In this document: in pieces, positions 59,782 through 60,162 of the stretch | How positions within the stretch are numbered: position 1 is the stretch's first letter | Layout: each line of letters starts with the position of its first letter | Assembly (NCBI RefSeq): GCF_044647545.1 | Contig: NZ_CP172818.1 | DNA from: Escherichia coli | GTDB taxonomy: Bacteria > Pseudomonadota > Gammaproteobacteria > Enterobacterales > Enterobacteriaceae | Direction: 5' to 3' (one strand) | Length of the DNA: 64,000 nt | Program-made: the position numbers and the translations under genes | Notes under the pieces: generated by a model | What the model was told of the DNA's origin: nothing | Seen by the model: the letters and a program-made list of their open reading frames with translations, nothing else | The model's database searches: none

Positions 59782-60162
59782 TCAAAGGCTCCAGGTATTT
59801 AACCCTTTTACCTCTTTCTCATAAAACCATTTGTTCGTGTTAACAGCAACATAGGCTGCTACGGCAATTCCCAGAATGTTAACGCCAATTAGTGCACCAA
59901 CAAATAGAGATAGAATGCCAAGTAATAGAACTATAATTGCTTTTTTCCATAATCCCAGAACAAATAAATAGATCCAGGAACAGAAGAAAGCAATGAAATT
60001 CATTTGAATAGTTAATCGTTATCTTACTTTTAATGTTTTAAATGCTGCTTTATATTCTGGTGTTGCCCCCCAGAATCCAGGAAAGCCATGTTGATCATAA
60101 AAGTTAAATCGGTATTTCCATTTTTCACTTAATGAACCATCGTTCATATATTCCTTACTCAT
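59782..60162 (-). pseudogene. yigF: yigF (DUF2628 membrane protein) interrupted by an in-frame TAA
   Basis: Two same-frame ORFs (MSKEYMNDGSLSEKWKYRFNFYDQHGFPGFWGATPEYKAAFKTLKVR and MNFIAFFCSWIYLFVLGLWKK...) separated only by TAA at 60019–60021 plus 5 sense codons (R-L-T-I-Q); together they reconstitute a ~126-aa protein. Confidence 0.6.

Follow-up and report, generated by a model that had tools for sequence, protein, structure and literature searches.

The yigF gene of the 64,000-nucleotide stretch of Escherichia coli DNA analysed here (the window) is very probably, at roughly 0.93, a recent, inherited CAA>TAA nonsense pseudogene of a sub-lineage that includes ST648 strains. A single C>T change turned codon 48 from CAA to TAA in an ancestor of that sub-lineage, and the source of the window is one of the TAA-bearing descendants. 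Translation from the native start would then end after 47 hydrophilic residues, leaving a product devoid of the C-terminal 79 residues, to which every membrane segment and the greater part of the DUF2628 domain belong. The pseudogene is already known, having been flagged in public annotation, and is of an ordinary kind.

Organization of the locus

The window contains the rarD-yigG-yigF-corA interval, which is the standard synteny in E. coli. Its relevant features are:

58789-59739, plus strand: corA, convergent with yigF
59751-59775, both strands: terminator-like inverted repeat (11 pairs) where yigF and corA converge
59782-60162, minus strand: yigF pseudogene, a 126-codon DUF2628 gene broken at codon 48
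59782-60003, minus strand: downstream in-frame open reading frame (ORF) of 73 amino acids from Met54, 15 nt past the stop
60019-60021 (read as 60021-60019), minus strand: premature TAA at codon 48, with CAA (Gln) as ancestor
60019-60162, minus strand: N-terminal ORF in the ORF list, 47 codons from the native ATG
60022-60162, minus strand: the 47 remaining sense codons, specifying the hydrophilic N-terminal fragment MSKEY...TLKVR
60066-60071, minus strand: G6 homopolymer in yigF codons 31-33, intact in the window
60168-60171, minus strand: Shine-Dalgarno sequence (GGAG) serving the native start of yigF, from the sequence and the duplex energy
60176-60556, minus strand: yigG, intact, the upstream member of the yigG-yigF pair, from the ORF list and the annotation of relatives
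60651-61541, minus strand: rarD

The yigG product in relatives, at the matching relative position, is WP_021521448.1. Translation of 59782-60162 on the minus strand, which begins MSKEY...FKTLKVR, gives MSKEYMNDGSLSEKWKYRFNFYDQHGFPGFWGATPEYKAAFKTLKVR, a stop, RLTIQMNFIAFF...NTWSL and the terminal stop: 127 codons in one frame with one internal stop. Once restored, the protein matches Pfam family DUF2628 (PF10947), with residues 17-117 aligned to positions 9-91 of the 93-position model (E = 4.7e-10); because of this match and the standard synteny, a chance pattern of ORFs is excluded. Of the attributes of a DUF2628 gene, the locus therefore possesses the profile match and the orthologous position, and lacks an uninterrupted frame of ~126 codons.

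No NCBIfam family was matched by YigF or its fragments, and a search of the literature on yigF found no functional study; one paper names the gene a PATRIC 'virulence factor' without data. The 90%-identity cluster to which YigF (P0131) belongs also includes true YigG proteins (e.g. P0132), which are unrelated to it in sequence. This mixed cluster looks like a quirk of database clustering.

Nature and ancestry of the stop codon

Alignment of the window yigF with an intact K-12-type copy is free of gaps, and the lesion is thus a nonsense codon; a frameshift is ruled out. The preliminary description, which was made from the sequence alone, had located a single in-frame TAA at 60019-60021 on the minus strand, read the two halves as a protein of ~126 residues in a shared frame, and called the lesion nonsense rather than frameshift; translation and alignment bear it out on all three points. 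The two genes differ at 10 of 381 positions, one of which is the first base of codon 48 (T vs C). The mutation is a C>T transition at 60021 on the coding strand (G>A on the plus strand) that converts CAA, Gln48, to TAA. The remaining nine differences comprise eight synonymous third-position changes and one non-synonymous change (T43 vs A43). Since eight of these nine are synonymous, purifying selection presumably acted on yigF until the stop arose, and the pattern indicates a gene that was constrained until recently.

The sense codon ancestral to the stop, for which an alignment of orthologues had been suggested at the outset, is CAA in the K-12-type gene and in the nearest relatives. Of 19 aligned homologues, all of the 12 that are enterobacterial have Gln at position 48, inside an R-Q-R/K motif, whereas the Pseudomonas homologues are variable there. 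The complete genomes of WB61 and EM10-18-28, in both of which yigF is annotated as intact, differ from the window across 59740-64000 (4,261 bp) solely at 60021. With CAA restored, a 91-mer of this haplotype has exact matches in 118 complete genomes, CE10, 042 and IAI39 among them. The stop therefore occupies an orthologous sense codon and, the nearest relatives being intact, is derived; as expected of a nonsense pseudogene, conserved portions of YigF are lost with the truncation.

Distribution of the TAA allele

A 61-mer centred on the TAA occurs exactly in 49 of 5,426 complete E. coli genomes. The window segment 59740-64000 is identical in 46 genomes, and at least a dozen more differ from it by one base; slightly extended, to 59713-64000, it shows 100% identity to WP4-S18-ESBL-09. 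The yigF of FDAARGOS_497 is likewise identical to that of the window, TAA included. The exact 47-residue product is recorded from at least 1,000 public contigs. Among the carriers of the allele are a record whose strain name is 'ST648' and IMT16316, described as ST648 in PMC6003029, and the link between carriers and ST648 rests on this one strain name and this one paper.

Judged by these genome comparisons, the TAA is real: a C>T transition of recent origin in the lineage, passed on clonally, and its spread is explained by clonal inheritance, the haplotype being identical over 4.26 kb. The preliminary description had proposed strain-specific pseudogenisation: the pseudogenisation stands, and its compass is a lineage, namely a sub-clade including ST648 strains, rather than a strain. 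It had also held that orthologues with a natural stop here, in which the downstream ORF is entered as a gene of its own, would speak against a pseudogene. Such annotation does exist in a trivial sense, as the automatic pipelines of some submitters (e.g. for MS6198) call the 47- and 73-residue pieces of this same allele as two adjacent genes. Otherwise, none of the aligned orthologues from outside the clade has a stop at codon 48, and RefSeq labels yigF 'pseudo, internal stop' in both of the carriers inspected, FDAARGOS_497 (EGY17_RS09315) and WP4-S18-ESBL-09 (H7R19_RS24045).

Fate of the gene product

Residues 1-48 have negative values on the Kyte-Doolittle scale, and a hydrophobic block extends from about residue 52 to 110; the stop thus precedes all of the predicted membrane segments, as anticipated in the preliminary description. 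It also splits the DUF2628 domain, which covers residues 17-117. Truncation removes 79 of the 126 residues, and with them 12 of the 20 invariant columns and every hydrophobic segment. The N-terminal fragment keeps eight of the 20 invariant residues (K14, W15, R18, F19, F21, P35, K42 and L44), and the invariant motif LGLWKK sits after the stop, within the 73-residue ORF. Because its product would be without membrane segments and most of DUF2628, yigF is most likely non-functional, with a 47-residue fragment being made.

Some termination-reinitiation could take place at the ATG 15 nt beyond the stop, yielding a 73-residue membrane fragment. A bolder proposal is that the split gene still works, such reinitiation providing a soluble 47-residue peptide and a 73-residue membrane peptide which, together or separately, keep or alter the function of YigF, possibly under selection. 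The short distance from stop to ATG, the retention of LGLWKK and every hydrophobic segment in the 73-residue ORF, and the wide spread of the TAA allele are all congruent with this idea, but the signals for translation are not. The native start forms a duplex of -5.9 kcal/mol with the anti-Shine-Dalgarno sequence, a value equalled or bettered by ~12% of the AUGs on the strand, whereas the Met54 ATG has no Shine-Dalgarno sequence and a duplex of -1.4 kcal/mol, weaker than 77% of them. Of the hallmarks of a coupled split gene, the locus thus has a nearby in-frame restart codon and lacks a ribosome-binding signal, and without a Shine-Dalgarno sequence independent initiation at Met54 is unlikely. 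Met54 itself is not conserved, being V, I, L, T or C in other orthologues; the Pfam domain spans both halves, with the eight invariant residues noted above lying in the N-terminal piece; outside the clade, no orthologue shows a break at codon 48; and clonal inheritance of the 4.26-kb identical haplotype accounts for the spread. We consider a working split gene very improbable.

With a terminator-like inverted repeat at 59751-59775, nothing lies 3' of yigF in its transcript. A polar effect on a downstream gene was accordingly rejected, since yigF is followed by this hairpin and then by the convergent corA.

Variation at the rarD-corA site

The yigG-yigF segment has a megablast match in 2,471 of the 5,426 complete genomes and was undetected in ~55%. 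In GF131, the sole non-matching genome inspected, a YPO3983-family/DUF943 pair lies between rarD and corA instead. Across E. coli, the site holds yigG-yigF, or YPO3983-family plus DUF943 genes, or both, as seen at seven loci; ST648-type genomes have both cassettes, with a 147-bp corA 3' duplicate between them. PADLOC gave no defence-family match for the YigF, YigG, DUF943 or YPO3983 proteins, and on that basis it was rejected that the variable cassettes found here act in defence.

The window departs from the ST648-type arrangement at 59593-59781, where the YPO3983/DUF943 insert and the 147-bp duplicate, present in every inspected genome of the ST648 haplotype, are both missing. The 3' end of the window corA is a mosaic of the two corA 3' copies, and at 59712 it has a synonymous CTC where others have CTG, a variant lacking in all three genomes that were compared at base level. 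This corA-yigF junction has an exact match in no complete genome, the best being 99.8%. Recombination between the corA repeats, with the insert being lost, would fit these features.

Other lesions of yigF are found in public assemblies, among seven loci compared. The G6 run is G5 in several of them, resulting in a 43-residue product, and one assembly possesses a stop in place of W15 (TGG>TGA at codon 15). Other genes are broken in the G5 assemblies, and some of these cases may therefore be long-read homopolymer errors; with that partial exception, G6>G5 and the W15 nonsense codon are lesions independent of the TAA.

The distribution of the pair among genomes argues that yigG-yigF is a dispensable two-gene cassette. 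As yigF is both part of this cassette and the last gene before the terminator, its loss was probably neutral or nearly so. There is a slim chance that the TAA allele is not neutral, and that loss or splitting of YigF was selected in the internationally spread sub-lineage including ST648 strains; were this true, the TAA would be an adaptive change and not a hitch-hiking pseudogene.

Accuracy of the window sequence

Over 1-39864, the window shares ~99.9% identity with an ST648-type genome. Two anomalous patches are found in it, neither of which touches yigF. In the first, at 56715-57654, a homologue of the SAM hydrolase/halogenase family, a 300-residue protein that is intact in ST648-type genomes, is wrecked by 229 differences, among them ~40 indel positions, with changes to C (plus strand) predominating. 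The density of differences climbs from 1 to ~35 per 100 bp and breaks off suddenly, 1 nt short of the yigE stop codon; for 56400-59800 the best identity in any complete E. coli genome is 93.3%. This patch looks like a low-quality read tail in the assembly and not natural decay. The second, at 42961-43098, is of low complexity, with a poly(A) tract of ~60 nt, and stands in place of 572 bp that, in the ST648-type reference, lie between aslA and hemY and encode the hypothetical protein WP_001260227.1; it is probably an assembly artefact.

It was because of these two poor-looking patches that the error hypothesis, raised as an alternative in the preliminary description, merited testing: under it, the TAA would be a base-call or assembly error and the isolate would truly carry CAA. 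The hypothesis is rejected since the codon recurs in 49 complete genomes, 46 of them identical over 4,261 bp, that originate from many laboratories and sequencing platforms; the record of the 47-residue product on so many contigs and the perfect identity of 59713-64000 to WP4-S18-ESBL-09 also stand against it. An error at this base is thus very improbable, and a genuine inherited TAA remains our reading.

Three smaller deviations from the ST648-type reference were noted. The tRNA-Leu(CAG) gene at 38912-38997 is 86 nt rather than 87 nt in length owing to a one-base deletion near 38990, the ARAGORN call being retained. Deletions of 4 nt and ~21 nt, at 16611 and 16948-16967, map by coordinates to the ppiC-ilvC and rep-ppiC intergenic regions, respectively.

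Readthrough

That the TAA is read through to full-length YigF, whether by programmed recoding or by an ochre suppressor tRNA, is extremely improbable and, as the preliminary description had remarked of programmed readthrough, not indicated: the only point in its favour is the C following the stop, which makes for weaker termination in E. coli, whereas the RNA around and after the stop shows no significant structure (MFE -11.6 kcal/mol; z = -0.37 vs shuffles), the stop is confined to one near-clonal haplotype and unconserved outside the clade, and UAA is not known to be used for recoding in E. coli.

Significance

The inherited TAA is of little importance and offers no new insight into translation or gene structure. 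As a clean single-base difference between the sub-clade and its closest CAA relatives, the site could serve in typing. The TAA also strengthens the case for the dispensability of yigF, made by the frequent non-detection of the pair and by the independent hits to the gene elsewhere.

Comparison with related genes

The yigF of K-12, an uncharacterised 126-residue member of DUF2628 (PF10947) with predicted membrane segments, shares its locus, synteny, length and frame with the window gene, and the K-12-type protein is 98% identical to that of the window once the stop is restored. They are distinguished by CAA at codon 48 and A43 in K-12, as against TAA and T43 in the window. The closest counterparts are EGY17_RS09315 of FDAARGOS_497 and H7R19_RS24045 of WP4-S18-ESBL-09, whose yigF sequence is the same as that of the window. 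In the inspected carriers, the YPO3983/DUF943 insert and the 147-bp corA 3' duplicate separate yigF from corA, whereas in the window corA abuts yigF. The yigF lesions of other assemblies inactivate the same gene and leave the same 73-residue downstream ORF to be called, but differ from that of the window in their cause, being either a 1-nt loss in the G6 run or TGG>TGA at codon 15.
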